Assembly: GCA_964618695.1 (NCBI GenBank)
Contig: CAZUDX010000001.1
Span: 73,843 to 137,842, forward strand
Reading direction: 5' to 3'
Source of the DNA: an uncultured Candidatus Bathyarchaeia archaeon
GTDB taxonomy: Archaea > Thermoproteota > Bathyarchaeia > Bathyarchaeales > Bathyarchaeaceae
DNA: 64,000 bases
A program made the position numbers and the translations under genes. The notes under the pieces were generated by a model that saw only the letters and a program-made list of their open reading frames with translations, had not been told where the DNA came from and searched no databases. Of the stretch, positions 25,535 to 55,862 are shown piece after piece; position 1 is the stretch's first letter; each line of letters starts with the position of its first letter.

Positions 25535-26410
25535 CTATGAAATTTTTTCGAGAATCTTGTCGGTCTTCACCTTGTGGCTTCGAAGCGCTAGCTCTTTAGG
25601 GTCTACACCCAAGGCTAAGGCTAGAAGTTCTGAATAGTGAAGCACTGGTATGTCGTAGACTTCGTTGAACTTCGATTTCACTTGGATTTGCCCAATGTCC
25701 AAGGCGACAAAACAGAAAGGACAGAGAGTTCCGATGCAGTCAGCACCCGCCTTAGTTGTGTTTACGAGTTTGTCTCTAGCGAGACTAAGGGCAAGATCGT
25801 CATCATAACCCCTCAAAAGACCACCACAACACTTCAACTTGTTTCGATACTCAACGCTCTCCGCACCCAGAGCCTCAATGAGGTTTTCCAACATTTGGGG
25901 GCGCTCTGGATCGTCGAATTCTAGCAGTTCGCTTGGTCTGAGGGAGTGACAACCATAGAAGGGCGCCACTTTCAACTTATTCAAAGGCTTAACTACACTC
26001 TCTTTCAGAGATTCAAGTCCGATGTCATCCATCAAAACCTGAAGGAAATGTTTCACCTCTATAGTGCCCTGAAACTCCTTTCCAGCCTTAGACAGGATTC
26101 CATTTACTTTTTCTCTAAGTTTTTTGTCCTTCTTGAGAGCCGCGTTAGTCATGGCGAGCGACTCAAAACAGCCAGTACACAAAGTAACAATATCTAGACC
26201 TGCTTCTTCAGCTAAACAGATGTTGTAAGCAGCTACAGCCTGACTGGTTTCCAAATCTATAGATTGAATAGGTGGAGGACAACAACAAGTCATGTCGTCC
26301 AAGTCGACGAGCCCAATTCCTAGTTTCGTCAGAGCCTTTCTTGCCGACAATTCATAGTTTGGTTGACGCGCGGGTATGGTACATCCTAGAAACAGAGCAT
26401 AGCTTTTCAT
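25535..26410 (-). CDS. hdrB: Heterodisulfide reductase subunit B
   Basis: 291 aa. Two CCG-domain signatures (CCCPPP..., CCGG...). ATGA overlap with hdrC. Confidence 0.9.
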   Translation of the reverse strand: MKSYALFLGCTIPARQPNYELSARKALTKLGIGLVDLDDMTCCCPPPIQSIDLETSQAVAAYNICLAEEAGLDIVTLCTGCFESLAMTNAALKKDKKLREKVNGILSKAGKEFQGTIEVKHFLQVLMDDIGLESLKESVVKPLNKLKVAPFYGCHSLRPSELLEFDDPERPQMLENLIEALGAESVEYRNKLKCCGGLLRGYDDDLALSLARDKLVNTTKAGADCIGTLCPFCFVALDIGQIQVKSKFNEVYDIPVLHYSELLALALGVDPKELALRSHKVKTDKILEKIS

Positions 26411-26949
26411 TGTGACTCCTCCTTCTGTTGTAGCTTATCAAAACCCGTTGCAGACAGAATTTTGCGCAGCGCGTCTATTCCGGTTGGCTTAAGGGGTGGC
26501 AAACCGTAGGCTATTCTCTTCTTTTCCACGAATTTGGAGACTTGAACTATACGTCCATCGTTCATGAGAGCCGACGCGAACTCTGAGTATATGTTCGGGA
26601 TGTACCCCTCAGCTAATGCAATGTTTCTCAGGGCGTAAATCAAATCGGCTATCTCAACCTTCTGCGGACACCTTTCTTGGCAGTTGAAACATGAACAACA
26701 AAGCCATATAGCATCGCCGGAGACCACCTCTTCCTTCTCGCCTAGGAGAGAAAGCTTGATGACTTCTCTGGGATTGAAGTTGGGGGTGATCTTAGCTACT
26801 GGACAGCTGCTAGCGCACGTCCCACACTGATAACATAAGGTTAAAGTTTCGCCGCCATGACGACTTGTAACCTCATCTGAGAATGGCATCTTGGATTTTT
26901 CCACTTTTTGTGTCATTATACTTCCGCCTCTTTTCATCAGAAAACTCAC
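26407..26949 (-). CDS. hdrC: Heterodisulfide reductase subunit C
   Basis: 180 aa. Two 4Fe-4S motifs, CYQCGTCASSCP and CCSCFNCQERCP. The start is ambiguous: GTG 26949, or ATG 26937/26916. Confidence 0.85.
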   Translation of the reverse strand: MSFLMKRGGSIMTQKVEKSKMPFSDEVTSRHGGETLTLCYQCGTCASSCPVAKITPNFNPREVIKLSLLGEKEEVVSGDAIWLCCSCFNCQERCPQKVEIADLIYALRNIALAEGYIPNIYSEFASALMNDGRIVQVSKFVEKKRIAYGLPPLKPTGIDALRKILSATGFDKLQQKEESQ

Positions 26950-29369
26950 ATTAACTTCAGGGGACCCAGTTTAGTTAGCCGCTCGGTCATCATCTGGGCA
27001 GCCTCTGCAAACTGATCGCCTTCAATGAACACCATGTTGAATAACTCTAACCTTTCAGGCTCTATCCCATATTCTTTCAATAATACCTTGGCGAGATCCA
27101 TCTTCTTCTCAGCTTTCTGAATGCCAACTTCGTAGTGGCAACCGTCGCTCTTGCATCCCACCACCATCACTCCTTGGGCACCAGCCTTGAATGCCTCTAG
27201 AATCTGGTGAACTTGAAGTATTCCGGTGCATGGAACCTTCATAACCCTCACGTTGGCGGGATACTGCATTTTAGCCATCCCCGAGGAATCTACAGCTGTG
27301 TGACCACATTCTTGGCAGCAGATAGCTAATACCAGAGGCTTCGATGTTCCGTTCACCGACATAAGGGCTTTCATTTGGGCTAACATCTGGTTTGGTCTTG
27401 AGTGCCTAAGTTCGATGGCGTTCAGAGGACAGGTTCCCACGCAGATGCCACATCCCTCGCATATTATGTCATTAACACGAGCAACGAAGTGATCTTCGGT
27501 TGTGGGTTCTAAACTTATGGCGCCGTAGGGACAGGTGACGGGACAGAATTCACAATCACCACAGTAGTCCTCGTTGATTATTGCTGTTCTTTGATCCTTG
27601 ACAATTTTGCCGTTGGTCAAGAACTTTGCAGCCTTTATAGCTGCCGAATGAGCATGCAGAGAAGATGTCGGTGCATCCTTTGGAAAGGTTGTTCCTCCGC
27701 AGAGGTATACTCCCCTAAGCTTTGTTTCTGTTGGTCTAAGTTTGGCGTTGTATTCCTTGAAGAAACCGTCTGCGTCCAAATCAATACCCAGAATCTCGGC
27801 AAGCTCCTCGGTTCCTTCAGCTGGCACCATGGCAGGAGCCAAGACAACTAGGTCAGCTTCAAGGTCTAAGAATCTTTTGAGAAGGGCGTCCTCAACATCT
27901 ACGAATAATTTGCCTGTTTCCGTGTCCTTCCAGATTTCGGTGGGTCTCCCCTTAACGAACTTTATGCCCATCTCTCTGGCTCTTTCATAGTAGTACTCGT
28001 GTTCCCTTCCTGTGGTCCTTATGTCGATATAACAGATGGAAACATCTGCGTCAGGATTTGCAGATTTAATCAACGAGGCGTGCTTTAGGGAGATCATGCA
28101 ACAGATGCTTGAACACCAAGGATTATATCTCCTGTCTCGCGAACCAGCACATTGAATAAAAACGATTTTCTTAGCGGGCTTGCCGTCTGAAGGTTTAACA
28201 ATCACTCCGCCTGTGGGACCGAAACCGTCAATCATCCTAGCCAGTTCAAGATTGGTTATAACGTCAGGATAATCGTCATAATGGTATTCCTTTATGGCGC
28301 TGGAATCAAATTCTCGGAAGCCCGTGGCGACAACTATGCTCCCCACATTGAGAGTTATCTGCTCAGGTTTCTGATCCAGTTCAATGGCGTTTGTTGGACA
28401 AACTTCAACGCATTTGGCGCAATCATGGAACTTGCAGGCGCTTTCGTCAATGACGTAGACTGGCGGATGAACGTTGGGTACGTTCATGTAGATGGCTTTA
28501 CGGGTCTTCAGCTTTGCATTGTATTCATCAGGTACTTCCACTGGACAAACGGTGGTGCATTTGTCACATAGCACACAATTATCGTTAACGTATCGCGGTT
28601 TCTTCTCTATCGTAACCTTATAGTTTCCAGGAACTCCCTCAACACCAATAACCCTAGCGTTAGTTAAGATGTTCAAGTTTGGAATCTCGCTGAAACCAGA
28701 ACGATACACACACTTTCTGGATGTGTGGGTGATGGTCTTCAAGTCAGAGGACGGAGATTGGATACAAATTGCGCAGTCGTCAGTTGGGAAGAAACGACCA
28801 GCGCGGGCAGCCAAGCCACCGAGAAATGGTGTCTTCTCAACCAAGTTCACTTCGAAACCCAAATCCGCCAAGTCCCCAGCCGCCTGCATACCAGCGATTC
28901 CTCCACCTATAATCAAGGCGGATTTGAGGACTGGAAACTCGAGTTTTTCGACAGGTTCAAGAAGCTTGGCGCGTTCGATGGCTGATAGAAGCATGGCTTT
29001 AGCCTTTTCAGTGGCTTCCTTGGGGGTTTCCCGGTGGGGCCATGCGCAGTGGTCTTTTAGGTCGATTACTTCTACCAAGTAGGAATTGAGACCTGCTTTC
29101 TCAACCGCTTGTGCTATTTTTACTTCGCTTAGTTTAGGAAGGCTCTCAGCGACAACTACTCGATTTATTTTTCCGCTTTTAACGGCATCTAGAATGGTCT
29201 TTAATCCGTTGCCACGCCAGAACTCGCTGCCTCTGCCTATTAATACTACGTTTGAGACAGTTTTCACGAAGCTTGTTAGAGCGTTGAAGTCTAAGATTTC
29301 AGAGAGTTGATTGCCACAGTCAGATAGAAATACTCCGACTTTAGGTTGTTCCATTTTCCATTCGCTCAT
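26946..29369 (-). CDS. hdrA: Heterodisulfide reductase subunit A fused to a C-terminal MvhD domain
   Basis: 807 aa. FAD fold IIGGGIAGMQAA, FPTDDCAICI, several ferredoxin CxxCxxCxxxCP motifs, and a C-terminal MvhD-like LAICCQECG...PCTG...VVGCKSDGCHY. Confidence 0.9.
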   Translation of the reverse strand: MSEWKMEQPKVGVFLSDCGNQLSEILDFNALTSFVKTVSNVVLIGRGSEFWRGNGLKTILDAVKSGKINRVVVAESLPKLSEVKIAQAVEKAGLNSYLVEVIDLKDHCAWPHRETPKEATEKAKAMLLSAIERAKLLEPVEKLEFPVLKSALIIGGGIAGMQAAGDLADLGFEVNLVEKTPFLGGLAARAGRFFPTDDCAICIQSPSSDLKTITHTSRKCVYRSGFSEIPNLNILTNARVIGVEGVPGNYKVTIEKKPRYVNDNCVLCDKCTTVCPVEVPDEYNAKLKTRKAIYMNVPNVHPPVYVIDESACKFHDCAKCVEVCPTNAIELDQKPEQITLNVGSIVVATGFREFDSSAIKEYHYDDYPDVITNLELARMIDGFGPTGGVIVKPSDGKPAKKIVFIQCAGSRDRRYNPWCSSICCMISLKHASLIKSANPDADVSICYIDIRTTGREHEYYYERAREMGIKFVKGRPTEIWKDTETGKLFVDVEDALLKRFLDLEADLVVLAPAMVPAEGTEELAEILGIDLDADGFFKEYNAKLRPTETKLRGVYLCGGTTFPKDAPTSSLHAHSAAIKAAKFLTNGKIVKDQRTAIINEDYCGDCEFCPVTCPYGAISLEPTTEDHFVARVNDIICEGCGICVGTCPLNAIELRHSRPNQMLAQMKALMSVNGTSKPLVLAICCQECGHTAVDSSGMAKMQYPANVRVMKVPCTGILQVHQILEAFKAGAQGVMVVGCKSDGCHYEVGIQKAEKKMDLAKVLLKEYGIEPERLELFNMVFIEGDQFAEAAQMMTERLTKLGPLKLM

Positions 29370-30820
29370 CTTCTCAGTGTCTTTACTAATTGCTTGTCGC
29401 TGTCGAAGATGTTAACCTCTAAGGGCATCTCGCCTATTGCAAAGTGGGTGGCGCAGGCGAAGCATGGATCGTAAGCTCTGAAGGCCATCTCTACCTTGTT
29501 CAACAGACCATCGCTGACCTCACCGTTCTGTATAAGACCTTGCGCGGCGTTCTTTACGGACATGCAGATACTGGGAGCATTATGAGTTGTAGCCACTATT
29601 AAGTTGACTTTCTTCGCCAAAGCATTCTCATCTAACTGGTAATGGTGAATAAGAGTGCCTCTTGCAGCTTCAACTATCCCAACACCTTCGCCAGGCTTTC
29701 CAGGTTTGTTTCTAATGTTTTTGCTTGTAATGTCCTTGTCCGTAATCAGTTCTAATCCTCTTTCGGTTGCGTACATAAGTTCAATCAGCCTAGCCCAATG
29801 GAACGCTAAAGTAGCGTGAACTGGTTTTCCGCCAAGAGTTTTGTACATTCTCTCGTATTCTGCTTGGGCAACTGGTGTTGTCATTCCATCAGCGGCGTTA
29901 AGTCTTCCCAGTGGACCGACTCGGTATAGACTGGTTTCTGGTCCGCTAGTGAGACCTTTCCAACCAATTTTCTTCAAGTAAGGAAGTTTAACGTAAGTCC
30001 ACGGTTCAACATGCTCTTCTATAATGTCCAAATATTCTGTGGGACCAAATTTGACGAATTCTTTGCCCTGCGTATCGACTACACGGACTTTGCCGTCATA
30101 GAAGTTAACCTTGTTGTTCTTGTCTACGGTTCCCATGTAGTAGGTTTCCAAGTTGTAGGGGTCGCTTGTGATCAAGTTCACGTAGTCAGCATTTTTCAGG
30201 ACAATATCATCAAAGAGTTTCAGAGAGAACTTGGCAAACTCGTGACAACTTTTAAGCATATCTTCGATCTCTTGCCGTTCTTCCTCGTTTATTGCCTTTG
30301 CCATACCGCCTGGAAGAGCGCTTACCGGATGGGTTGGTCTTCCACCAAGAATTCCAGTGATCCTTTGTCCAAAAGCACGATGTTTTATGACTTCTCCAGC
30401 GACTTCCAAACCGGCTTTTTCTATTACTCCAAGAATGTTACGTTTAGCAGCGGGAGCGTCAGGTCCTACAACAAAGTCTGGACCGCCCAAGAAGTAGAAG
30501 TGCAGTATGTGGTCATAAATGAAATAACCGCAATACTCTATTTCTCTCAGTTTTTTCGCCGTTTCTGTCGGTTCAACATTCATTGCCATATCTGCAGCTT
30601 TTGCCCCTGCCATATGATGGGCAACTGGGCAGACTCCACAGATTCTGGTTGTTATTATGGGTAGGTCTTCAACCCTTCTTCCTTCGCAGAACCGTTCAAA
30701 GCCCCGCAGTTCGGGAACTTGGAAGTAAGCATTTTCAACGTTTCCAGCGTCATTTAGGAATATGGTTATTTTTCCGTGACCTTCCAGCCGTGTTATTGGA
30801 TCTATCACTATTTCTTTCAT
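29366..30820 (-). CDS. mvhA: [NiFe] hydrogenase large subunit, Mvh (group 3c)-type
   Basis: 484 aa. Has RLEGHG, the N-terminal Ni-Fe ligand motif RICGVCPVAH, the C-terminal DPCFACATH, and a cleavable extension. Confidence 0.9.
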   Translation of the reverse strand: MKEIVIDPITRLEGHGKITIFLNDAGNVENAYFQVPELRGFERFCEGRRVEDLPIITTRICGVCPVAHHMAGAKAADMAMNVEPTETAKKLREIEYCGYFIYDHILHFYFLGGPDFVVGPDAPAAKRNILGVIEKAGLEVAGEVIKHRAFGQRITGILGGRPTHPVSALPGGMAKAINEEERQEIEDMLKSCHEFAKFSLKLFDDIVLKNADYVNLITSDPYNLETYYMGTVDKNNKVNFYDGKVRVVDTQGKEFVKFGPTEYLDIIEEHVEPWTYVKLPYLKKIGWKGLTSGPETSLYRVGPLGRLNAADGMTTPVAQAEYERMYKTLGGKPVHATLAFHWARLIELMYATERGLELITDKDITSKNIRNKPGKPGEGVGIVEAARGTLIHHYQLDENALAKKVNLIVATTHNAPSICMSVKNAAQGLIQNGEVSDGLLNKVEMAFRAYDPCFACATHFAIGEMPLEVNIFDSDKQLVKTLRR

Positions 30821-31779
30821 TTCTTCACCTTCCTTCGGAGGATAGAGTGAGCTAACGAATACTTGTAGAAGGTTCCTATCGGATCCACAATGTCCTTAAC
30901 AACATCCGGATTTGTAGCAATGGAAGCAAGGGCACTAATAGCCGCAGCACCCTGATCGGTCACCCTAGGACCTGGACCGTTGCAGCCAGTGCATGGAATA
31001 TTAACTTTTGGGCATTGGGCGCCGCAACCTGCTCGGGTGGCTGGACCCATACAAATCACGCATTGGTCCAAGAAACATGTTTCTCCGTCATCATCAATCT
31101 CGTAGATTCTTTTTATCTGAGAGAGTTGTTTGTCCTTCTTCTCCCTTGGACACTCATCGCAGATGGATTTGTTTGGCAAGAAACTTGAACCCTTCGGAGG
31201 CAGATTGCCGGTTATAAATGCCATAAACATGTTGAGAATCGCCGGAATCGGCGGTGGACAACCAGAAATAGTGTAATCGACATCCACAGTTTGGGGTAGG
31301 GTTTTTACAGTGTCATAGAATTCTGGAAGTTCAAGCTCTCCTTCTTTGACTTTCAGATGTGTTTTAGGGGTCACATATTCTGGGTTTTGGGTCGATTGAG
31401 TCTCAGAATATGCTCTCTCGAAGATGGTTTTCCTGTCCCAAAGATTTGCGAGACCTTTGACACATCCGTCGTTGGCGCATGAGCCGAAGGCCACAAGTAT
31501 CTTTGATTTTTGTCTCAGGAGTTTTGCCATCTTCTCATTTTCTTCAGTTCTTATTGCGCCGTTGAAGAAGCAGGCGTCTATACTTTTGTCTGGCATAGCT
31601 TTGACATCTTTATATTTTATGTCCATGGCCACAGGCCAGAAGACGATGTCAGCAGCAGCAACGACGTCTAAGATTTTCTCGTTTACATCAAGAACAGCTA
31701 CTTCGCAGCCTCCACAACTAGCCGCCCAATAAAAAGCGATCTTAAGTTTCTCCTTTCCCACAGGAATCACCGTTTGCAA
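30817..31779 (-). CDS. mvhG: [NiFe] hydrogenase small subunit, Mvh-type
   Basis: 320 aa. SCGGCEV proximal-cluster motif and further Cys clusters (GSCA, CDEC, CxxCxGP...CTGC). The start may be GTG 31770 (leaderless) rather than TTG 31779. Confidence 0.85.
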   Translation of the reverse strand: MQTVIPVGKEKLKIAFYWAASCGGCEVAVLDVNEKILDVVAAADIVFWPVAMDIKYKDVKAMPDKSIDACFFNGAIRTEENEKMAKLLRQKSKILVAFGSCANDGCVKGLANLWDRKTIFERAYSETQSTQNPEYVTPKTHLKVKEGELELPEFYDTVKTLPQTVDVDYTISGCPPPIPAILNMFMAFITGNLPPKGSSFLPNKSICDECPREKKDKQLSQIKRIYEIDDDGETCFLDQCVICMGPATRAGCGAQCPKVNIPCTGCNGPGPRVTDQGAAAISALASIATNPDVVKDIVDPIGTFYKYSLAHSILRRKVKK

Positions 31780-31800: not shown

Positions 31801-31916
31801 GAGCAAATAAAGCTTTCCTTTCATCACAAAAAAATGATTTATACCCCTGAAATATTTGGAAAAAGGTGCCTAGCCACTTGGGCTAGGAAAGTAAATAATG
31901 ATTTTATTATCAGAAT

Positions 31917-33269
31917 TTAACGAAGTTTCCTTATCACCATTTCTGCAGCTAAAACCATCGGCTCCCACGTTTCGCAAACTGGAGGGGCATAGCATGTCTC
32001 GGCTTTCGCTAGTTCTTTGACAGTCATTTGGTTTTGTATAGCAAAGGACAGAGCGTTTACGCGCTGTGTTACTTCTTCTCCACCAATTATTTGAGCCCCA
32101 ACGAGTTTTCCTGTCTCCTTTTCTGCGACAAGCTTGATTCTGATTGGTAAGGCTCCTGGGAAGTAATCAGCCCTTGTTTTTGATTGTATTGTTCCTGCCA
32201 CAACTTCTATTCCTGCTCGACCAGCCATGAACTCTGTTAGTCCTGTGCCGCCGATTTCAGTGTCAAACAATCTTGTAATCCAAGAACCTAAGGCTCCTGA
32301 AAACGTGGTGTATCCGCCAGCAGCGTTGGTCCCCGCTACCTTTGCCTGTTTCACAGCAGTGGTTCCAAGCTGGCTCATTGTGGGTCTACACGTAACTAGG
32401 TTTATTGTTTCAGCGCAGTCTCCAGCTGCATAAATTCCTTTGATGTTAGTTTCCATTTTAGAGTTAGTTTTTATGCCCTTCTTTTCTCCCAGAGCTACGC
32501 CAGCGTTTTTTGCCAGTTCAGTATTTGCTCTTACCCCAGTGGCTACCACAACCACATCTGCCGAAATCTCTTCTCCAGCAACAAGAACTCCATTAACTTT
32601 GTCAGTTCCAAGGATTTCCTCTGCTCCTTTTCCAACAATAATTCTCATGCCTTTCTCTTCAAGCATCTTCTGAACGCGATCAGCCATATCCTTGTCCAGC
32701 AAGACAGGGAGAACATATGGAAGGAATTCAACGACTGTGGTTTTCAGTCCTCGTTCAAGGCAAGCTACGGCAACTTCAAGACCAATGAGTCCAGCGCCTA
32801 CAATGACGGCTGACTTTGCTGTCTCAAGGGCTTGGTTGATTTTTTCTCCGTCTTTAATGGTTCGGACAACGTACACGCCCTTCTTTTCTCGTCCCTTTAT
32901 CGGGGGCACAAAAGGAGCTGCGCCGGTGGTTATGACTAAACTGTCATACGGAAGAGTTTCTTTCTTTCCAGTTTTGTCTTGTATCTCGACAGTTTTTGCT
33001 TTAGTATCAATGTTTGTTACTGTTGTTTCAGTTTTCAGGTTTAGTTTCATCATTTTGTAGAATCTTTCAGGGAAGACCACTAGATCATCGAAGGTGGGTA
33101 TGTGTCCGCCCAAAACGAAGGGGAGACCGCAGCGGGAGTATGCTGTTTTGGCCTCTTTGGTTATTAGGGTGATTTCGGCGGTTCTATCGGTTTTTCGGGC
33201 AGCAGATGCCGCGTCAACACCTGCGGCGTGTGCTCCAATAATTATAATTTTTCGGGTCATTTTTATCAC
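31917..33269 (-). CDS. FAD-dependent pyridine nucleotide-disulfide oxidoreductase, NADH oxidase / CoA-disulfide reductase family
   Basis: 450 aa. GxHAAG FAD fold, a single redox Cys in YSRCGLP, a second dinucleotide fold VGAGLIGLE, and AAGDCA. Confidence 0.8.
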   Translation of the reverse strand: MIKMTRKIIIIGAHAAGVDAASAARKTDRTAEITLITKEAKTAYSRCGLPFVLGGHIPTFDDLVVFPERFYKMMKLNLKTETTVTNIDTKAKTVEIQDKTGKKETLPYDSLVITTGAAPFVPPIKGREKKGVYVVRTIKDGEKINQALETAKSAVIVGAGLIGLEVAVACLERGLKTTVVEFLPYVLPVLLDKDMADRVQKMLEEKGMRIIVGKGAEEILGTDKVNGVLVAGEEISADVVVVATGVRANTELAKNAGVALGEKKGIKTNSKMETNIKGIYAAGDCAETINLVTCRPTMSQLGTTAVKQAKVAGTNAAGGYTTFSGALGSWITRLFDTEIGGTGLTEFMAGRAGIEVVAGTIQSKTRADYFPGALPIRIKLVAEKETGKLVGAQIIGGEEVTQRVNALSFAIQNQMTVKELAKAETCYAPPVCETWEPMVLAAEMVIRKLR

Positions 33270-33365
33270 TCATTTTTTGGTTGTCAAATTATCAACTGGT
33301 TTTTATCATATTAAGCTTATTCATAGAAAGATGGATACTCGGATTAGGACTATATTAGAGACGCT

Positions 33366-33560
33366 TTAGCTTTGTTCTTTTACAAGTGAGTAAAGGCGAC
33401 TCTTGTTATCGCAGTCGATTGTGCCTTCACTGAAGAGTTTCCGTAAAGCTTTGAAGATTGCTTTCTCTGATTTTCCGATTTTTTCCGCGATTTCAACTAG
33501 ACTGAGAGCTTTTCCTGAGGTTTCTAACAGTGAGATTATTTGTTTATGGATTTTGCCCAT
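33366..33560 (-). CDS. Small winged-helix DNA-binding protein
   Basis: 64 aa. LSLVEIAEKIGKSEKAIFKALRKL HTH-like segment. Confidence 0.45.
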   Translation of the reverse strand: MGKIHKQIISLLETSGKALSLVEIAEKIGKSEKAIFKALRKLFSEGTIDCDNKSRLYSLVKEQS

Positions 33561-33620
33561 TATGGATTCCAGCCTGTTTGTTGGTATCTTATCTGTATGT
33601 TCTTAGATAAATTATCTTTT

Positions 33621-33653
33621 GTTAAAAAAATAGGAGTGTTTAAACAAACTCCT
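33621..33653 (-). terminator. Hairpin plus oligo-U terminator after gcvH
   Basis: The minus strand reads AGGAGT-TTGTTTAAAC-ACTCCT, followed by A and T7. Confidence 0.45.
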
Positions 33654-33709
33654 CCTAAGAGGCTCATTGTTGTTCTTGGAAAGCATCTAGGCACTTGTTT
33701 GTGACTGGT

Positions 33710-34126
33710 TTAACCTTCTTTTGCGACTTTTTTATGCCATTCTACAGCTGCTTCGAAGTTCATGATTGCTTTCAAGTCTGCATCTAGATTTGATGGGGCT
33801 ACGGTTACTACCCATCCCTCGCCATAGGGGTCTTCGTTTAACAGTTCAGGTTTGGACTCAAGCTCTTCGTTCACCGATTCAATTGTACCGCTTACAGGGG
33901 CAACGAGGTCTGAGACTGCTTTCACGGATTCTAAGGTTCCGAAAGGCTCGTTTTGAGTTATAGTGTCACCGACACCAGGAAGTTCAACAAAGACGATGTC
34001 ATGGAGTTGTTTTTGGGCGTAGTCAGAGATGCCGATTCTAACTTTTCCGTTTTCTACTTTTGCCCACAGGTATTCCTTGTGGTAATATAGACCTTCTGGT
34101 ACTTCGTAGTCTTCTACTTTGACCAT
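33710..34126 (-). CDS. gcvH: Glycine cleavage system H protein / lipoyl-carrier protein
   Basis: 138 aa. Canonical lipoyl-lysine motif LESVKAVSDLVAPVSG. Confidence 0.9.
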   Translation of the reverse strand: MVKVEDYEVPEGLYYHKEYLWAKVENGKVRIGISDYAQKQLHDIVFVELPGVGDTITQNEPFGTLESVKAVSDLVAPVSGTIESVNEELESKPELLNEDPYGEGWVVTVAPSNLDADLKAIMNFEAAVEWHKKVAKEG

Positions 34127-34268
34127 ATTTTACACCTCTATCAGATACGGTATTGTGATACCTGTTTATCTTAAAAATGTAACTATCCCATTTTTTATTT
34201 CGCTATTTATGAAAAACTGCGCATCCGCGTTTTACGTTTATTAGAGTGGTTGAATGAATTGTGACTGA

Positions 34269-35348
34269 ATGCGTATGAGGATATTAGCTTTAGACATTGG
34301 AGCAGGAACCGAAGACATTCTGCTATTCGACGACAATAAAGGCAGTTTGGAAAATTGCGTCAAGATGGTTTTGCCTTCACCCAGCAAGATTTACGCCTCA
34401 AAAGTTAAAGAAGCAACCAATCGTCGCCAAGACATTTTCTTGACAGGAGATATTATTGGGGGAGGGCTACTATCGAAAGCGATACGGAACCATCTTCAAG
34501 AAGGTCTCAAGGTATTTGCGAAAGAGAAAACAGCTTTCACAATAAGAAATGATCTGAATGAAGTCAGAGAGTTAGGAATCGAAATTATCCCTGAAAACCA
34601 AGAACCAAAAAATTTTGACGGAATAAAACTACGACTAGAGGAAGTTAACCTTCAGAAACTGGAGAAATTCCTACAAGAATTTAACGAGTCGTTAGTTGGG
34701 GTAGATTTTGTGGCGATTGCTGTTCAGGATCACGGTATTTCTAATCAGGGAATGAGTAATAGACAGTCTCGCATCCAAAACATGAAGGCGCTCTTAAAGA
34801 AGGAGCCTTTGCCTGAAAAACTTGCTTTCAAAGAAGACGAGATTCCTCCATTCTTTTTGAGGATGCAGTCAGCAGTGCAAGCGTCTAAGAGGCAGCTTCC
34901 TGAAGCTCAGGTTTTGTTGATGGATACCGCGCCAGCGGCTTTGTTGGGATGCTTAAAGGACCCGGTGGTTGAAGAAAAAGATCAGGTGATTGCAGTAAAT
35001 ATTGGAAACGGTCACACAATGGGTGCAATAATTTCAAAGGGTAAAATTCAAGGTTTGATGGAGCATCACACTTGTTTGCTTGATCCCAAGAAACTTGAAC
35101 AGCTCGTGGTCGGATTTGCTGATGGAGATGTTACGAACGAAGATGTGTTCAGGGAGGGTGGTCATGGACTATTTTATTTAACAGAGCCTCCGGGATTTTC
35201 ACAGATTGATGTGGTTGCGGTTACTGGTCCTAACAGAAAAATGGCAACAACAACAAAGTTTTCCAGTTATTTTGCGGTCCCCGGCGGAGATATGATGATG
35301 ACTGGACCAATCGGTCTCATCGAAGCAACAAACAGACTGTATTTGTGA
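34269..35348 (+). CDS. ASKHA (actin/sugar kinase/Hsp70)-fold protein, DUF1786-like
   Basis: 359 aa. Phosphate-1-like ILALDIGAGTED and NIGNGHT motifs. Function unknown. Confidence 0.5.
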   Translation: MRMRILALDIGAGTEDILLFDDNKGSLENCVKMVLPSPSKIYASKVKEATNRRQDIFLTGDIIGGGLLSKAIRNHLQEGLKVFAKEKTAFTIRNDLNEVRELGIEIIPENQEPKNFDGIKLRLEEVNLQKLEKFLQEFNESLVGVDFVAIAVQDHGISNQGMSNRQSRIQNMKALLKKEPLPEKLAFKEDEIPPFFLRMQSAVQASKRQLPEAQVLLMDTAPAALLGCLKDPVVEEKDQVIAVNIGNGHTMGAIISKGKIQGLMEHHTCLLDPKKLEQLVVGFADGDVTNEDVFREGGHGLFYLTEPPGFSQIDVVAVTGPNRKMATTTKFSSYFAVPGGDMMMTGPIGLIEATNRLYL

Positions 35349-35430
35349 GCAGCTGATGTGTTTTAGTCAAGGTTTCTTGACAAAAATGCTTTTCAAATTC
35401 CTTGACGAATGATTTTTTGGTGCCCAACGA

Positions 35431-37254
35431 GTGAAAAAAAGTGGGACAACTCTAATTGTATTACTCGTTATTTCTTCCTTATTGGTAATTCTTTCCAACA
35501 TTGAGACTGTTACGGCAGAACCTAGAACAATTGTTGTTCCTGACGATTATTCCACGATTCAAGAGGCAATTGATGGAGCTTCTGAAGGCGACACCGTGTT
35601 TGTGAAGAATGGAATCTACATCGAAAGCGTCACAATTGACAAAGCCTTGGCGCTTGAGGGCGAGAACAAAGAATCAACAGTAATCGACGGAAACAACACT
35701 GGACCAACCATTCTCATACGCCACGACGGAGTCAACGTTACAGGCTTCAAAATAAGAAATGTCGAAGACCCCCCGCCGTTTTCTGATTCACGCGGAAGAC
35801 TTGCAGGAATCCATCTGCTGGATGTTCGTCACTGCAGAATATATGGAAACAATGTGGTAAACTGTGGCAAAGGAGTATGGCTTCACGGGTCATCAGACAA
35901 CAACATAATTACAAACAGTTTTTCAGGCAACAACTACGGTGTCCTCTTAGAGTCATCCAACAACAACATCATCACTGTAAACACGATTTCAGATGGTTGG
36001 GGCGGCATCTGGATTGAAAACTCCGAAAACAACATGCTTAGAGACAACAACATGCTAAATAACGTCCAAAACTTCGGAATCTTAGGCTCTGAGATTTCAC
36101 ACTACAACAATGATGTTGATCTGTCAAACCTGATCAACAGCAACAGAGTATATCGTGTTATTGACGAAACAAACCTGATCATTGATCCCTCTTCCTTTCC
36201 AGATGTTGGCTATTTGCTCGTAATAAACTGCACAGGCATAACAGTTCAAAGCTTGCAAGTAACCAACAACTATGTAGGAATACATTTAGTGGGTTCACCT
36301 AACTGCACACTAACTCAAAACGTTGTATCAAATAACACGTGCGGAATATGGGTTCAACTCTCTCAGGACTGCGTTATTTCCGAGAATGAAGTTGAATCAA
36401 ATAGTGATTGGGGAATCCGAGTTGACAAGTCGGATAACAGCCACATATCCCACAATTATATGGAATATAATCAATTGAATGGGATCGTGATCACTGGTTC
36501 GGATAACAATTTGATAGTTGAAAATAATATAGCACATGGCTTCGACGGTTCTGAGGGATTCAATGGTATCAGTCTACTTTCATCTAGCAATAACCAGATT
36601 GTCGGAAATTCGATATTAGGGAATGAAAATTGTGCTGGAATAAATCTCAAGGATTCTTCAAATAACTTAGTGAAAAGAAATCTAGTCGATCCTGGTGCTC
36701 TAGGAATAAACATTCGAGAAGAGTCCAACTACAATGAAATTTTGGAGAATACTTTACTAACTGACATGGGTAGTTGGGGAATTGTTCTGTTTAGTTCATT
36801 TAATGTGTTGACTGGAAACAACGTTACAAACTTTTACACGGGCATTAAGCTTTCCGGCGAAAACAACACTGTTACGCAGAACATTTTTTACAGTAAGGAG
36901 CGTGCAATTGAAGTTTTTCCGGAAAGCAACAACAACACATTCATTATGAACAACTTTCAGGGGGGGACAGAAATTTTCGATTTCAGTCAAGTCTGGCAGG
37001 AACTCCCAGTGAATATTTGGGACGACGGAGAAAAAGGCAATTACTGGGAGAACTATAAAGGAATAGATAATAACGGTGATGGAACAGGAGATACTCCATA
37101 CATCATAAACGAGAAAAACCAAGACAACCATCCACTCATGGAGCCAGTCATAATCCCAGAGTTCCCACCATGGATACTTTTGCCACTGTTTTTGATTGCC
37201 ACACTGTTTGCGTTGGTTATAAAAAAGAAACTCTCGACTCAACTTCTCCAATAA
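35431..37254 (+). CDS. Secreted right-handed parallel beta-helix (NosD/pectate-lyase-like) repeat protein with PEF-CTERM anchor
   Basis: 607 aa with a signal peptide. More than 15 N-x-I-x-x-N-type beta-helix turns and many NxS/T sequons. The C-terminus is PEFPPW + TM + KKK. Confidence 0.75.
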   Translation: MKKSGTTLIVLLVISSLLVILSNIETVTAEPRTIVVPDDYSTIQEAIDGASEGDTVFVKNGIYIESVTIDKALALEGENKESTVIDGNNTGPTILIRHDGVNVTGFKIRNVEDPPPFSDSRGRLAGIHLLDVRHCRIYGNNVVNCGKGVWLHGSSDNNIITNSFSGNNYGVLLESSNNNIITVNTISDGWGGIWIENSENNMLRDNNMLNNVQNFGILGSEISHYNNDVDLSNLINSNRVYRVIDETNLIIDPSSFPDVGYLLVINCTGITVQSLQVTNNYVGIHLVGSPNCTLTQNVVSNNTCGIWVQLSQDCVISENEVESNSDWGIRVDKSDNSHISHNYMEYNQLNGIVITGSDNNLIVENNIAHGFDGSEGFNGISLLSSSNNQIVGNSILGNENCAGINLKDSSNNLVKRNLVDPGALGINIREESNYNEILENTLLTDMGSWGIVLFSSFNVLTGNNVTNFYTGIKLSGENNTVTQNIFYSKERAIEVFPESNNNTFIMNNFQGGTEIFDFSQVWQELPVNIWDDGEKGNYWENYKGIDNNGDGTGDTPYIINEKNQDNHPLMEPVIIPEFPPWILLPLFLIATLFALVIKKKLSTQLLQ

Positions 37255-37329
37255 TAAAACAATCCAGCTTCATTGGGAGCCGAAAATATCTTATGCTAAT
37301 TAAATAGTCAAAATTTGAGGTTGCTTAGG

Positions 37330-37722
37330 ATGTTTGAGCCGGTTGAAGAGGCAAACGCGTTAGATTGGAAAGAGACAATATTGAAAGCAAAGAAGCTTGT
37401 TGTTGTGGAGTTTTGGTCTCCATACTGTCCTCATTGCCAAGCAATCAAACCAGTTTACGACGAACTTGCATTAGAATACGGAGACAAACTGAAATTCACC
37501 AAACTCAATGTCATGGATAGCCCCGAAAACCAAAAACTTGCAGCAAAACATGGCATAATGGGAACACCAACATTCCTGTTCTTCTGCGGAGGAAGACCAG
37601 TCAACGGTGTTGTTGGAGCATTAGCAAAAGAAGACCTTACACAAGCAATAGAGTTCACAATCCAAAAACACGAAGATTGCTCAAAGAAAAGCACACCTCT
37701 AAGTCTGCCCTACATTAGCTGA
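37330..37722 (+). CDS. Thioredoxin
   Basis: Start set at ATG 37330, 8 nt after GAGGT. Has a WSPYCPHC active site and a Trx fold (GTPTFLFF). Confidence 0.85.
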   Translation: MFEPVEEANALDWKETILKAKKLVVVEFWSPYCPHCQAIKPVYDELALEYGDKLKFTKLNVMDSPENQKLAAKHGIMGTPTFLFFCGGRPVNGVVGALAKEDLTQAIEFTIQKHEDCSKKSTPLSLPYIS

Positions 37723-37836: not shown

Positions 37837-38877
37837 ATGTCGGCAGTAAATGATAACATATTTGAGGGTACATTTGCTAGTGAGTTTGGATATCAGATGA
37901 AAGTTGAGGAAATTTGGCGCGTTTCTGGAGAAGAATTGGCTTCAATGATTGAAAAGGGACTTTTCCGAAACAATCAGAGAAGAATTCGGTTTTACGCTCC
38001 AAGTTTCATGAACTACAAAACCAGCTACTATTGCTCATCTAAAACTTTTTTTCCATCGATTTCAATCACAGGGTCTTCATGTGCTCTGAAATGCAAACAT
38101 TGCGACGGAAAGGTTCTCAACACTATGTATCCAGTTTCTACTCCAAACGAACTTTTTGAGTTATGCAAGAAATTGAAGGCTAAAGGAGCAGTGGGATGTC
38201 TCATAAGTGGAGGGTGCCTTCCTGATGGTTCTGTTCCCCTTGACAATTTCGTAGACGCCATAGCCAAAGTGAAAAAAGAGTTGGGATTAACCATTGCAAC
38301 CCATACTGGAGTCATAGAGTTGTCCACTGCGAAGAGGCTGAAGGAGGCAGGTGTTGACGCTGCGCTACTTGACATAATTGGTTCCAATCAAACCATACAA
38401 GAGATATACCGACTGAAAATCACTGTTGAAGACTACGATAGGTCTTTGAAGGCTTTGCACAAATCAGGTATTCCTTTCGTTCCTCACTTGCTTGTTGGGC
38501 TTCACTATGGCGAACTGAAGGGTGAACTTCAAGCCCTAAAGATTATTTCTAATCACTCACCCTCAGCGATTATTTTGATAGCTTTCATGCCGATTCATGG
38601 AACACCCATGGAAAAAGTTGTCCCCCCAAGTCCCGAAGACATTGCCAAAGTGCTGGTTACAACTAAACTGCTGATGCCCAATACGCCTGTTGCCTTAGGA
38701 TGCATGAGACCGAAGGGAAAACACAGAACAAAAACAGATACTTTGGCTGTGAAAGCTGGAGTCAACGCCATCGCCTTTCCAGACGAAGAAGCAATAAAGC
38801 TAGCAGAATCGTTAGGTCTAGAGATTTCGTTTTCGCCCATCTGCTGCTCCCAAATCTTCAAAGACCTAATATCATGA
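37837..38877 (+). CDS. Radical SAM protein, biotin-synthase-homolog type; candidate lipoyl synthase component LipS2
   Basis: 346 aa. CALKCKHC (CX3CX2C) preceded by FPSISITG, then GGC.PDG. The pattern matches my memory of the COG1856-type LipS2 family; not verified. Confidence 0.55.
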   Translation: MSAVNDNIFEGTFASEFGYQMKVEEIWRVSGEELASMIEKGLFRNNQRRIRFYAPSFMNYKTSYYCSSKTFFPSISITGSSCALKCKHCDGKVLNTMYPVSTPNELFELCKKLKAKGAVGCLISGGCLPDGSVPLDNFVDAIAKVKKELGLTIATHTGVIELSTAKRLKEAGVDAALLDIIGSNQTIQEIYRLKITVEDYDRSLKALHKSGIPFVPHLLVGLHYGELKGELQALKIISNHSPSAIILIAFMPIHGTPMEKVVPPSPEDIAKVLVTTKLLMPNTPVALGCMRPKGKHRTKTDTLAVKAGVNAIAFPDEEAIKLAESLGLEISFSPICCSQIFKDLIS

Positions 38878-39015
38878 TTCTAGGCAATAGGCAGACGTCT
38901 TTGCAGACATAACAGTTACGTTTTTGTTCGCCAACATACATTTCCAGAAACTATTTGAAGGGCGATTCCAATCACAATTTTTCTGTGTTTCCTTCAAGCA
39001 AACGGAGATTTGTTA

Positions 39016-39360
39016 ATGTCAACTCACCCTCGAATGGTTAGAGAGAGAAAAACAATTGAAGCCATGGTAAAAATTTACTGCCATAACCATCATGAAAGCG
39101 ATGGAGAACTTTGTCAGGAATGCAATGAACTGTTTGAATATGCAATGATGCGACTAGATAAATGTCCCTACCAAGAAAAGAAAACAACCTGCGCCAAATG
39201 CCCAATACATTGCTACAAACCAGAAATGAGAACAAAAGTAAGGGAAGTGATGAAGCATTCAGGACCTCGCATGCTATTCAAGCATCCAATCTTAGCGATA
39301 AAACATCTTTTAGACGGGCGCAAGAAACCAGAAAAACCCAAAAAACGACAAGCCTCCTGA
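39016..39360 (+). CDS. Cys/His-rich YgbA-like (nitrous-oxide-stimulated-promoter family) protein
   Basis: ATG 39016 lies 8 nt after GGAG. Motif string REKKTIEAMVKIYCHNHH...CQEC...CPY...CAKCPIHCYKP. Confidence 0.6.
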   Translation: MSTHPRMVRERKTIEAMVKIYCHNHHESDGELCQECNELFEYAMMRLDKCPYQEKKTTCAKCPIHCYKPEMRTKVREVMKHSGPRMLFKHPILAIKHLLDGRKKPEKPKKRQAS

Positions 39361-40214: not shown

Positions 40215-41234
40215 GTGAATGATGTGGGCAAAAATTCCGTTAATGAATTGCCAGACCGTATCCGAGTTTCAATGGGCTCGGCTACTGTGCTTGGGTTGTT
40301 GCGAGGTAGGTTAGATGCCAAACCCACAACCGTTTACCTACTCACTTGTCGAACCGAAAAGTGTTCCGCCAACTGTGGTTTTTGTCCCCAAGCCAGAGAG
40401 AGCAAAGGCAGAGCAGACATGCTGTCCAGAGTGACATGGCCTATCTTCCCGACAAAACAGGTTGTTGATGGAATAGAGAAAGCTGAAAAAACGGGAGATA
40501 TAAAGCGGGTTTGCATCCAGACACTGAACTACCCAGAGGTTTTCAACGATGTTTTGCTTCTGGTTAAAGAAATAAAGTCCCGAGCCCAAGTTCCGGTATC
40601 CGTCTCTTGTCAACCCGCAAGCCCAGAGAGATTGAAGGCTTTGTCAGAGGCTGGTGTTAACCGCATAAGTGTTGCTTTGGATGCTGCCACAGAAGAAATA
40701 TTTGACAAGGTTAAGGGAAGAATCATCGGCGGACCTTACAGATGGGAGAAACAGCATGAGGCTCTAAAGGATGCTGTCAGCGTCCTCGGAGAAGACTCGG
40801 TGAGTACACATCTTATTGTAGGTTTAGGGGAGACAGAGAAGGAGCTTTGTCGAACGATTCAATGGTGTGTTGATTCAGGAGTCTATCCGGGATTGTTCGC
40901 CTTTACACCGATATCGGGAACTGCTCTTGAAAACAACCCTCCGCCATCCCTAAGCCAATATCGAAGAGTTCAAGTTGCCCACTACCTCTTAACCCACAGA
41001 AAAACACGACTGGAAAACATGGAATTTGATGAAGGTGGACGTGTCACCAACTTTGGAATATCTAAGAAACAGTTACGGGAAGTCGTTGAAACTGGCGAAC
41101 CTTTTCTCACTTCCGGATGTTCAGGATGCAACCGACCATACTACAACGAAAGACCCGGCGGTCCAATCTATAACTGTCCTAGGCAACCGAGGTCCGAGGA
41201 AATTGCTGAAGCAAAAAAAATGTTAGAAATCTAG
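40215..41234 (+). CDS. Radical SAM protein, biotin-synthase-related; candidate lipoyl synthase component LipS1
   Basis: 339 aa with a GTG start. CSANCGFC (CX3CX2C), LSRVTWP and IVGLGETE motifs. Matches my memory of the COG2516-type LipS1 family; not verified. Confidence 0.55.
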   Translation: MNDVGKNSVNELPDRIRVSMGSATVLGLLRGRLDAKPTTVYLLTCRTEKCSANCGFCPQARESKGRADMLSRVTWPIFPTKQVVDGIEKAEKTGDIKRVCIQTLNYPEVFNDVLLLVKEIKSRAQVPVSVSCQPASPERLKALSEAGVNRISVALDAATEEIFDKVKGRIIGGPYRWEKQHEALKDAVSVLGEDSVSTHLIVGLGETEKELCRTIQWCVDSGVYPGLFAFTPISGTALENNPPPSLSQYRRVQVAHYLLTHRKTRLENMEFDEGGRVTNFGISKKQLREVVETGEPFLTSGCSGCNRPYYNERPGGPIYNCPRQPRSEEIAEAKKMLEI

Positions 41235-44337: not shown

Positions 44338-44584
44338 GTCAACCGCCTGTCTTACTGACTGGAAGATTTGGAGTTTAAGGTGTTTTGCTATTAAAAAGCG
44401 TTTCTTACTAGTGATGTGAAAATTTTCTGTATCTACAAGAAATATTAGAATCAAGACTCAGAGTTTGAGCTCAGCTGACAAAACTAAGGATGTGAACTGC
44501 GTTCTCCTAACGATGCGGCGAAAAACTTAAAACAAACATGTAAAATTCGTATTAAGTCTAAACACTGGTGTGTGAATTACATTG

Positions 44585-46615: not shown

Positions 46616-47413
46616 TTAGATGGCTGCTTTGCCGGGGAGAGTCCAATCCTCGGTCACAAATCTCTCTTTTCTTAATTTTTTAGCCAGTTTCTGTTCGTAT
46701 TCTGTGAGTTCTTCTTCCACTAGCTGCACGTTTAGCACTTTCTCGAATCCTTTAACTAATGCGTGGTAAGCTTCGTCTGTTGTAAACTGGGACTCAAGCT
46801 CTTGTCTGGCAGAGGTCAATTTTCTCTTAGAGACTTCCAGCACATCGTTGAGTGTTTTTGCCCATGGAACCTTAAGGAAGGTGAACATTTTTTCGTGGTC
46901 TATATCCAGTAGGAATGTTCCGTGCTGTAGCAAGACGCCTTTTTTTACGGATTGAGCGTTTCCAGAGATTTTTTTTCCACCTATAGTGAGGTTGGGACAT
47001 CGTTTCGGGTCTGGGGGCTGGAACTCGGCTTTGGCTCCAAGGATTTTAACCGCTTCGTTGAGTCCACTGCATATTTTTTGGTATGCAGGAAGCATGTTTA
47101 AGGCCCCGCAACCCAAGTCGGCTGTTTTTGCAACTACACAATAGGTTATTTCGCCCTCCGAGTCGTGATATACAGCCCCGCCACCTGAGATTCTTCTCAC
47201 GATGTCTACGCCATGTTTCCTGCAGTTTTGCACGTGAACCTCGTTGTTGAGGTTTTGGAAGCGTCCTATGGAGACGGCTGAAGGCTTCCACATATAGAAA
47301 CGTAGGGTGTTAGGCACTTTACCTTCGATTCTGGCTCTCATGATTGCTTCGTCGACAGCCATGTTTGCGAAAGCGTCCCTAACTTCGAGTTTAAGAAGCC
47401 TCCAAACGCCCAT
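46616..47413 (-). CDS. lplA: Lipoate-protein ligase A / octanoyltransferase catalytic domain protein
   Basis: 265 aa. Motifs [12 protein letters not shown] and the [10 protein letters not shown] catalytic Lys motif. There is no C-terminal accessory domain. Confidence 0.85.
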
Positions 47414-52672: not shown

Positions 52673-52720
52673 ATGTGTTTTCCTCAATTAGTCAATACGG
52701 TTTTTATATGTGGAATTTTT

Positions 52721-52740
52721 CTATACTTAAGCATTTCCCC
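52721..52740 (-). promoter_or_regulatory. Candidate BRE/TATA element of paralog A
   Basis: The minus strand reads GGGGAAATGCTTAAGTATAG. It sits at the same distance from the AATTGAGGA RBS block as the equivalent element of paralog B. Confidence 0.4.
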
Positions 52741-53070: not shown

Positions 53071-53094
53071 AGAAAAAAGAAAAAGGGGAGATTA
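53071..53094 (-). terminator. Oligo-T terminator of beta-propeller gene B
   Basis: The minus strand reads CTCCCCTTTTTCTTTTTTCTTTC immediately after the stop. Confidence 0.4.
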
Positions 53095-53096
53095 TT

Positions 53097-55811: not shown

Positions 55812-55862
55812 CTTTTTTTCTCTCCTCAATTTTTTGAGGCGGTTCTAAGTAATGTCCATTTG

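Follow-up and report, generated by a model that had tools for sequence, protein, structure and literature searches.

A 64,000-nucleotide stretch of an uncultured Candidatus Bathyarchaeia archaeon (assembly GCA_964618695.1, contig CAZUDX010000001.1, positions 73,843 to 137,842; hereafter the window) carries gcvH, encoding a lipoyl-carrier H protein, followed by genes for a small winged helix-turn-helix (wHTH) protein and a single-Cys flavoprotein of the NOX/CoADR family, and then by an mvh-hdr operon encoding an Mvh-type hydrogenase and heterodisulfide reductase (Hdr). We propose that an archaeal neighbourhood of lipoate-assembly genes (LplA and LipS1/LipS2) ends here, in a Bathyarchaeum-like organism, with the gene for the carrier protein. 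The flavoprotein would serve as the redox partner of lipoyl-GcvH and the mvh-hdr genes would be separate; the probability that we assign to this combined reading is about 0.45. On this best reading, the wHTH protein and the flavoprotein are an unusual companion pair of an LplA-LipS1/S2-GcvH neighbourhood that lies beside Mvh-Hdr and is not part of it. The gene set and layout had been described in an earlier reading of the DNA letters alone (the sequence-only reading), and the open reading frames (ORFs) are as described there, with gcvH, the 64-aa wHTH gene and the single-Cys flavoprotein gene on the strand of mvh-hdr and 5' of mvhG.

The gcvH gene (33710..34126, minus strand) encodes a protein of 138 aa (PF01597, E 9e-39) that scores above the curated cutoffs of TIGR00527 (137.2 against 115.85), NF002270 (149.4 against 117) and PF01597 (132.6 against 22.2). 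The canonical ESVKAVSD lipoylation site noted in the sequence-only reading is present; the motif TLESVKAVSDL, with the predicted lipoyl-lysine K69, pairs with VESTKSVSDL of the solved Mycobacterium tuberculosis GcvH (PDB 3ift, E 4e-30), aligning the two lysines. Identity to orthologues is 78-86% across 13 related genomes, and the protein is 50% identical to the GcvH encoded inside the full gcv operon of a Desulfofervidaceae locus (L039; loci used for comparison are designated by L numbers). No Cys occurs among its 138 residues, whereas LbpA, the carrier of the sHdr systems of sulfur oxidisers, has two conserved Cys, N- and C-terminal, that GcvH lacks (Cao 2018, PMC6067878). Because of this difference, we classify the locus protein, from its sequence, as a true GcvH and not as an LbpA type.

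The H protein had been called an orphan in the sequence-only reading. The description stands for gcvT, gcvP, lpd and 2-oxoacid dehydrogenase E2 genes, as neither the window nor 18 related loci yielded any of them, but it fails for cofactor assembly, as LipS1, LipS2 and LplA are all encoded in the same window. Both subunits of a radical-SAM lipoyl synthase exceed their cutoffs and contain CX3CX2C motifs: LipS1 (37837..38877, plus strand; NF053742, 254.4 bits against 230) and LipS2 (40215..41234, plus strand; NF053743, 355.7 bits against 270). An LplA-type lipoate/octanoate:protein ligase of 265 aa, consisting of the catalytic domain only (46616..47413, minus strand; PF21948, E 1.5e-46), reaches 159 bits against a Pfam cutoff of 27, but 191 bits against the NF053750 cutoff of 480; it is perhaps a ligase of one domain, or else an octanoyltransferase resembling LipM. 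These genes lie 3.7 kb (LipS1), 6.1 kb (LipS2) and 12.5 kb (LplA) from gcvH. LplA together with LipS1/LipS2 constitutes the archaeal lipoate-assembly pathway that work on Thermococcus kodakarensis and on sulfur oxidisers has characterised (PMC9585515, PMC10332631), and archaeal LipS1 has been reported to cluster with H protein and lipoate ligase (PMC9585515). In addition, the supplementary data of Tanabe and colleagues place LipS2, LipS1 and LplA on one contig in Bathyarchaeia B26-1/UBA233 genomes (PMC10332631). Since its gene neighbours those of its own cofactor-assembly enzymes, the H protein is no orphan in this setting, which is that of an LplA-LipS1/LipS2 lipoate-assembly neighbourhood.

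Partners for glycine cleavage were sought with Pfam and NCBIfam family scans of nearly all window ORFs of at least 80 aa (a P-type ATPase ORF at 41629-44454 was identified by eye only), and these gave no GcvT, GcvP, Lpd, LipA or E2 in the 64 kb. Canonical GcvT, GcvPA, GcvPB, LipA and Lpd queries likewise found no counterpart by tblastn in the window and the 18 Bathyarchaeia loci (352 kb with overlaps); the single match to the Lpd query was the flavoprotein, at 30% identity, and this is the sole pyridine-nucleotide disulfide oxidoreductase in the window or in the 352 kb of Bathyarchaeia sequence. The lack of gcvT, gcvP, lpd and E2 that the sequence-only reading had reported for the window thus extends to the related loci. 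In a comparative study, the Bathyarchaeia reported to have a glycine cleavage system all belong to two other orders (PMC10321748), and neither the Bathyarchaeum tardum genome paper nor its supplement mentions glycine, lipoate or heterodisulfide. No glycine riboswitch was found in the window, where Rfam gave one tRNA as its sole match. The equivalog-grade GcvH favours, as judged from its sequence, a glycine cleavage system whose T and P genes lie elsewhere; alternatively, lipoyl-GcvH may act in a glycine-independent thiol relay.

Both products encoded between gcvH and mvhG had been correctly identified in the sequence-only reading, as a pyridine-nucleotide disulfide oxidoreductase with a YSRCGLP motif and a 64-aa wHTH protein. 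The latter (33366..33560, minus strand) is a putative regulator, with an HTH_24 score of 22.9 bits just above the cutoff of 21.9. The former, a NOX/CoADR/persulfide-reductase-family flavoprotein (31917..33269, minus strand; 450 aa), probably starts at the ATG at 33260, which would give 447 aa, a length as in its homologues. It combines Pyr_redox_2 (E 5e-63), Pyr_redox and Pyr_redox_dim domains in a two-dinucleotide-fold plus dimerisation architecture for FAD and NAD(P)H, and carries Cys47 in the YSRCGLP motif. Orthologues were taken as the best 120 protein matches, all from one clade, and were compared with six outgroup sequences; Cys47 is the same residue in all 126 and aligns with the Cys of 6pfz and 6ruz. 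The closest solved structures are 6pfz NoxA-3 (E 7e-91), then 6ruz NOX, 4fx9 CoADR and 8a56, the solved relatives being NADH oxidases, CoA-disulfide reductases and CoA-persulfide reductases, and homologues are labelled 'NADH oxidase (H2O2-forming)' by JGI. The protein falls under all substrate-level NCBIfam cutoffs, including those of CoADR (TIGR03385, 374 against 578.8), NF007123 (346 against 458) and NF046103 (247 against 600). With the Lpd model TIGR01350 it scores 139 against 408.8, in a match that spans residues 89-439 without the N-terminal active-site segment; in that segment Cys47 stands alone, so the CxxxxC redox disulfide of Lpd is missing. By these sequence features, the flavoprotein has the single-Cys architecture of the CoADR/NOX/Npsr group and fits no single substrate-defined equivalog, neither CoADR nor H2O-forming NOX.

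Further residues of the flavoprotein are specific to its clade. His14 (in GAHAAG, which replaces the usual GGxAGG) and Cys170 are invariant in 120/120 Bathyarchaeia orthologues, Cys426, beside the YAPP motif, is present in 116/120, and no outgroup (L017-L021) has any of the three. A C-terminal Cys pair (CYAPPVC) was considered as a second redox centre and was rejected, with Cys432 present in 54/120 orthologues. For His14 as an equivalent of His10 of NADH peroxidase we make no claim, as we take the register of that enzyme to be one position off.

The mvh-hdr genes (25535..31779, minus strand) form a tight operon, given the 4-bp overlap at each junction, and were assigned by NCBIfam as mvhG (30817-31779; VhuG), mvhA (29366-30820; VhuA), an hdrA-mvhD fusion of 807 aa (26946-29369; HdrA2), hdrC (26407-26949; HdrC) and hdrB (25535-26410; HdrB); gapdh and pgk come after hdrB. 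All six proteins of an MvhADG-HdrABC system (MvhA, MvhG, MvhD, HdrA, HdrB and HdrC) are thus encoded in one unit. Along its whole length, HdrB shares about 50% identity with the HdrB of methanogen CoM-S-S-CoB reductase (E 8e-85), and it scores 343.6 where the TIGR03288 cutoff is 345.15. The match of HdrA to methanogen HdrA also runs the full length (E 1e-164), whereas sHdrA (6tjr) covers only residues 339-581, and hdrC and hdrB are present in one copy each, not duplicated as in the shdr cluster. As predicted from these comparisons, the locus Hdr is of the Mvh-type bifurcating kind, with a methanogen-type HdrABC, and is not an sHdr. The analogy with sHdr/LbpA systems drawn in the sequence-only reading does not carry over, given a GcvH without Cys and a full-length, methanogen-type Hdr with single hdrC and hdrB genes.

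The link of GcvH to Hdr, also suggested in that reading, is weakened by separate predicted transcription signals. The intergenic gaps between gcvH, the wHTH gene, the flavoprotein gene and mvhG measure 149, about 100 and 137 bp. A terminator scan detected a hairpin (CCTAGCC-N5-GGCTAGG) followed by a T-run 3' of the flavoprotein stop (31869..31887, minus strand); the same or an equivalent hairpin, or a T-rich tract, occurs at this position in 10 related loci and is followed by the mvhG promoter block. This strongly conserved block, AAAGCTTTATTTG...TTAATCGAG, lies directly 5' of mvhG and is inferred to be a BRE/TATA promoter. A T-run and a conserved AAAAGATTTTTTATC block are found between gcvH and the wHTH gene, AATAAGATTAATATG lies 5' of the flavoprotein gene and TTTTTAAGATAAAC 5' of gcvH. 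TATA-like blocks are therefore kept 5' of gcvH, the wHTH gene, the flavoprotein gene and mvhG, with T-runs or hairpins 3' of gcvH and of the flavoprotein gene. Because the 137-bp gap holds a hairpin and T-run and then a promoter block, the gcvH trio is predicted not to be operonic with mvh-hdr, each of its three genes having transcription signals of its own. No operator shared by the four promoters was evident by eye. A bacterial sigma-70 promoter scan was set aside as uninformative for an archaeon (13 sites, 12.8 expected). In the 5' region of gcvH (34127-34175, minus strand), the segment TATCACAATAnCGTAnCTGATAG, with inverted TATCA/TGATA ends, is conserved in 12/12 related loci; it follows a TATA-like box, precedes the ribosome-binding site (GAGGTG) of this gene, and is possibly an operator or an element of the 5' untranslated region.

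We also compared the loci of relatives by tblastn of the window proteins. The closest proteins to those of the locus are named Candidatus Bathyarchaeum or Bathyarchaeota; the flavoprotein is 80-90% identical in 16 GTDB species, and the nearest long record is CP070820.1 (L004, 1.56 Mb). The wHTH gene is directly 5' of the flavoprotein gene in 16/16 loci holding that stretch, and gcvH is directly 5' of the wHTH gene in 13 of 16, the exceptions being L015 (2.5 kb off) and L011 and L010 (none seen). Upstream, lipS2-(ygbA)-lipS1-(trx) lies within 5 kb 5' of gcvH in 11 of the 14 genomes with enough upstream sequence, the usual order in relatives being lipS2-ygbA-lipS1-trx-gcvH; a LipS1 gene was found 5' of gcvH in 9 related genomes and a LipS2 gene in the lipS block of 10. 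The thioredoxin gene trx divergently adjoins gcvH in L006, L007, L012, L013, L022 and L023, about 150 bp apart in relatives.

The gcvH-hdr linkage is conserved in relatives only in part: mvhG lies directly 3' of the flavoprotein gene in 14/15 loci, but the hdr genes come and go. After mvhGA, hdrA-mvhD, hdrC and hdrB are missing in L004 (11501-14069), L009 and L013, with 160-370 bp to gapdh, which leaves a group 3c-type hydrogenase dimer without an MvhD/HdrA partner at these loci, and in L023 both mvh and hdr are missing, with gapdh-pgk there instead. The gcvH-wHTH-flavoprotein trio is kept in these four relatives, and gcvH is detached in L011, L010 and L015. Since, ranked by identity, the hdr-less genomes fall among those that have hdr, there look to have been several independent hdrACB losses. 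Neither the 120 best clusters nor the inspected members of multi-member clusters at 84% identity or more included an HdrB orthologue from CP070820.1 (a 251-member cluster at 81% identity was read in part). As the flavoprotein of this record (P0006, 90% identity) is in the same protein collection, and its locus keeps gcvH-wHTH-flavoprotein-mvhGA, an orthologous hdrB seems, with moderate confidence, to be missing from the genome, although a divergent paralogue is possible. The region is thus a chain of separable modules: lipS2, ygbA, lipS1 and trx; gcvH; the wHTH and flavoprotein genes; mvhGA; hdrACB; and gapdh with pgk.

In the mechanism that we propose, LplA would load octanoate or lipoate onto Lys69 of GcvH, and LipS1 with LipS2 would add two sulfurs to the GcvH-bound chain. 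Lipoyl-GcvH would then alternate between dithiolane and dithiol forms. The flavoprotein, with its own predicted transcript and its wHTH companion, would be the best candidate for an NAD(P)(H)-linked partner, oxidising or reducing the lipoyl arm via FAD and Cys47 through a mixed disulfide, as in CoADR, in place of a two-Cys Lpd. The wHTH protein perhaps controls the flavoprotein gene, and the divergently encoded thioredoxin may join in thiol exchange; mvhGA-hdrACB would be an independent, separable transcription unit outside the lipoyl module. By analogy with the characterised pathway, it is highly probable that LplA and LipS1/S2 lipoylate the locus GcvH. That the flavoprotein acts on lipoyl-GcvH is suggested by gene position only, and we hold this step tentatively, at somewhat less than even odds. 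The sequence-only reading had proposed that the flavoprotein stands in for a missing Lpd, which is plausible because its gene sits where lpd sits in the canonical gcv operon of L039.

Several observations weigh against this assignment. The best structural relatives of the flavoprotein are not lipoamide dehydrogenases. LplA is below its NCBIfam cutoff, and no LplB-type accessory ORF was detected in the window. No gcvH or lipS gene lies within 10 kb of the wHTH-flavoprotein-mvh-hdr block of L011, where the genes upstream of the wHTH gene encode a cation-efflux protein, SerRS and ribosomal protein S3Ae. The outgroup flavoproteins closest in sequence (46% and 42% identity; L017 and L027) have unrelated neighbours. 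Moreover, the syntenic genomes are all close relatives (at least 80% identity) in which gapdh and pgk are equally syntenic, so conservation is weak evidence of function, and the gene adjacency may have been inherited rather than selected. A different account deserves weight, one that we regard as possible though less probable than our own: the wHTH protein and the flavoprotein would be a self-sufficient stress or detoxification pair with a dedicated regulator (an NADH oxidase/peroxidase, or a CoA-disulfide or persulfide reductase), GcvH would be ordinary, with its T, P and L proteins encoded elsewhere, and the adjacency would have been inherited within a genus-level clade. The kinship with NoxA-3, NOX, CoADR and CoA-persulfide reductase, the JGI label, the promoter and terminator signals of each gene, the outgroup flavoproteins away from gcvH, L011, the glycolytic synteny and an equivalog-level GcvH that is 50% identical to one in a full gcv operon are all consistent with it. 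It is harder to reconcile with the retention of gcvH beside the wHTH-flavoprotein pair in 13/16 loci despite frequent rearrangements around them, with the lack of gcvT, gcvP and lpd in all the Bathyarchaeum sequence sampled (the window and 18 loci), with the report of glycine cleavage for two other Bathyarchaeia orders only (PMC10321748), and with a flavoprotein that is below every NCBIfam equivalog cutoff.

Two further explanations give the flavoprotein other partners. The idea that lipoyl-GcvH is the disulfide of Mvh-Hdr, so that electrons from H2 would be split between ferredoxin and, at HdrB, the lipoyl disulfide while the flavoprotein re-oxidises dihydrolipoyl-GcvH with NAD(P)+, making the set a lipoyl-shuttled bifurcating hydrogenase dependent on ferredoxin and NAD(P), draws on the likeness of the parts to those of sHdr systems (Hdr, lipoate-binding protein, NAD-linked oxidoreductase, LplA and LipS1/S2), whose genes in Sulfolobaceae occupy several operons with lpd tightly linked (PMC6067878). 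It also draws on the presence of GcvH inside a hydrogenase-HdrBC-HdrA2B2C2 cluster of Culexarchaeia, for which the same speculation has been made (PMC9723716), on the description of the Mvh-Hdr disulfide of non-methanogenic archaea as 'unidentified' (PMC11291895), and on the flavoprotein gene adjoining mvhG in 14/15 loci. However, the transcription signals are separate, hdrACB was lost at the locus in three relatives and mvh plus hdr in one with gcvH and the flavoprotein kept, no orthologous HdrB was traced to CP070820.1 among the clusters and members inspected, and L011 has mvh-hdr with no gcvH nearby. The separate units, the repeated hdr loss and the detachment of gcvH where mvh-hdr is kept together disfavour an obligate GcvH-Hdr link. 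In addition, the full-length identity of about 50% between HdrB and CoM-S-S-CoB reductases and a GcvH without the two Cys typical of LbpA argue against this route. The potential of lipoamide (E0' about -290 mV) would, by our own estimate from this textbook value, leave little driving force for bifurcation from H2, and we consider the route unlikely. We rate as more improbable still that the flavoprotein serves lipoate assembly, by passing NAD(P)H electrons to LipS1/LipS2 in the manner of LipT or by keeping reduced the thiols or persulfides of sulfur insertion, possibly with thioredoxin. In bacterial lipS clusters, the FAD/NAD(P)H oxidoreductase LipT has been proposed as the electron donor of LipS1/S2 (PMC10332631), trx and the flavoprotein gene flank gcvH by lipS1 in relatives, and the closest solved relative of the flavoprotein is in the persulfide/CoA-disulfide reductase group. 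Yet when the blocks separate (L011, L004 and L009), the flavoprotein gene goes with mvh-hdr and not with lipS. LipT presumably belongs to a different flavoprotein family from the locus enzyme, and we know of no single-Cys disulfide reductase that reduces radical-SAM clusters.

Other genes interleave with the lipoate-assembly genes. Diverging from gcvH, the window order is DUF1786, NosD-like, thioredoxin, LipS1, YgbA-like, FdhD and LipS2. The thioredoxin has a CPHC motif (37315..37722, plus strand; PF00085, E 1.5e-24). The DUF1786 and NosD-like beta-helix genes that separate it from gcvH (34269..37254, plus strand; Pfam) encode an ASKHA-like protein annotated as 'putative PFL-activating enzyme' and a 607-aa protein with hydrophobic segments at its N- and C-terminus; this insertion is absent from all related loci but L001 (same strain), and is strain specific and probably outside the system. 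Likewise, fdhD stands amid the lipS genes in the window alone. The Cys-rich YgbA_NO protein (39010..39360, plus strand; PF11756, E 7e-46), whose family name refers to a 'nitrous oxide-stimulated promoter', is encoded between lipS2 and lipS1 in at least eight genomes (the window, L003, L006, L007, L013, L016, L022 and L023), which suggests that it is an unrecognised accessory of this lipoyl synthase system. About 30 kb from lipS, tusA (80 aa), a NifS/IscS-like cysteine desulfurase gene and nifU form a compact sulfur-mobilisation cluster (2365-4180), a possible source of sulfur or Fe-S for LipS1/LipS2.

Two observations concern the remainder of the window. Glycolytic genes of a bacterial type are present in this archaeon, encoding type I GAPDH, an ATP/PPi-type phosphofructokinase (TIGR02483) and a class II fructose-bisphosphate aldolase (24402-25418 and 60054-62012). 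Two large paralogues (822 and 910 aa; 50219-55829) with PQQ-like beta-propeller repeats, one with a C-terminal PT-repeat, are probably surface proteins.

In sediments, Bathyarchaeia rank with the most abundant archaea, and the gene set is present in hundreds of metagenomic contigs. Two questions meet at the locus, namely what lipoic acid is used for in anaerobic archaea that have LipS1/LipS2 but no 2-oxoacid dehydrogenase E2 (PMC9585515), and which disulfide, called 'unidentified', is reduced by Mvh-Hdr in non-methanogen archaea (PMC11291895, PMC9723716). GcvH, LplA, LipS1/S2, the flavoprotein and Mvh-Hdr make up a compact, cloneable set with which both questions are open to in vitro test. If a lipoyl-GcvH shuttle were real in Bathyarchaeum-type archaea, for which CoM or CoB synthesis is not known, it would tie an Mvh-type Hdr to the pyridine-nucleotide pool and would be a third independent association of Hdr with a lipoyl protein, beside sHdr-LbpA and the Ehe cluster of Culexarchaeia. 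If GcvH is ordinary, the smaller value lies in a corrected annotation, that of a lipoate-assembly neighbourhood, and in a candidate non-canonical L protein.

Among known systems, the locus resembles the T. kodakarensis-type LplA(B)-LipS1/LipS2 clusters (Neti 2022, PMC9585515; Tanabe 2023, PMC10332631) in its LipS1/LipS2 above cutoffs, LplA and nearby GcvH, and also in having no E2 nearby, it having been remarked in print that few LipS1/S2 archaea have E2. It differs from them in that no LplB was found and no gcvT or gcvP was seen locally, and in the interleaving of thioredoxin, YgbA-like, wHTH and NOX/CoADR-type flavoprotein genes. The canonical gcv operon is exemplified by L039 (3173-18452), where the operon gcvT-orf104-gcvH-gcvPA-gcvPB-lplA-lipA-lpd is complete and stops 80 bp short of a convergent cluster for MvhD-like, two HdrA-like (about 1010 aa) and HdrC-like proteins; no family matches the 104-aa ORF that follows gcvT. 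L039 was examined as an independent case of GcvH with Hdr and was rejected, since its gcv-lplA-lipA-lpd operon is of the canonical kind, with the hdrA cluster in convergent orientation. Both loci hold an equivalog-grade GcvH by lipoylation genes and a pyridine-nucleotide disulfide oxidoreductase, whereas the Bathyarchaeia locus has no T and P genes, has LipS1/S2 for LipA and monocistronic genes, and encodes a single-Cys NOX/CoADR-family enzyme where L039 has a two-Cys Lpd.

The published sHdr model pairs LbpA with Lpd (PMC6067878). As in Sulfolobaceae, where the Group II genes are scattered and lpd is linked, genes for Hdr, a GcvH-family carrier, LplA, LipS1/S2 and an NAD-linked oxidoreductase co-localise in the window; unlike there, the carrier is Cys-free, and full-length HdrA-MvhD, HdrC and HdrB with MvhAG are encoded in place of hdrC1B1A-hyp-C2B2. 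The locus organism is not known to oxidise sulfur, unlike the hosts of sHdr-LbpA. The GcvH-Hdr disulfide link presented as new in the sequence-only reading has a precedent in the Culexarchaeia Ehe cluster, which combines a group 4 [NiFe] hydrogenase, HdrBC, HdrA2B2C2 and GcvH and for which the lipoyl arm was already proposed, speculatively, as the disulfide (Kohtz 2022, PMC9723716). In both cases a non-methanogenic TACK archaeon has gcvH by hydrogenase and Hdr genes, but our locus has a soluble group 3c Mvh, its gcvH lies outside the operon with two genes and a terminator between, and the gcvH-Hdr linkage is lost in some relatives. Finally, the flavoprotein shares with the single-Cys CoADR/NOX/Npsr enzymes (6pfz, 6ruz, 4fx9 and 8a56; E 1e-69 to 1e-91) the architecture, the xSxCGLP redox Cys and the NAD-binding motif, and is set apart from them by scores below the equivalog cutoffs, by the clade-specific His14, Cys170 and Cys426, and by its pairing with the wHTH gene and, usually, with gcvH.

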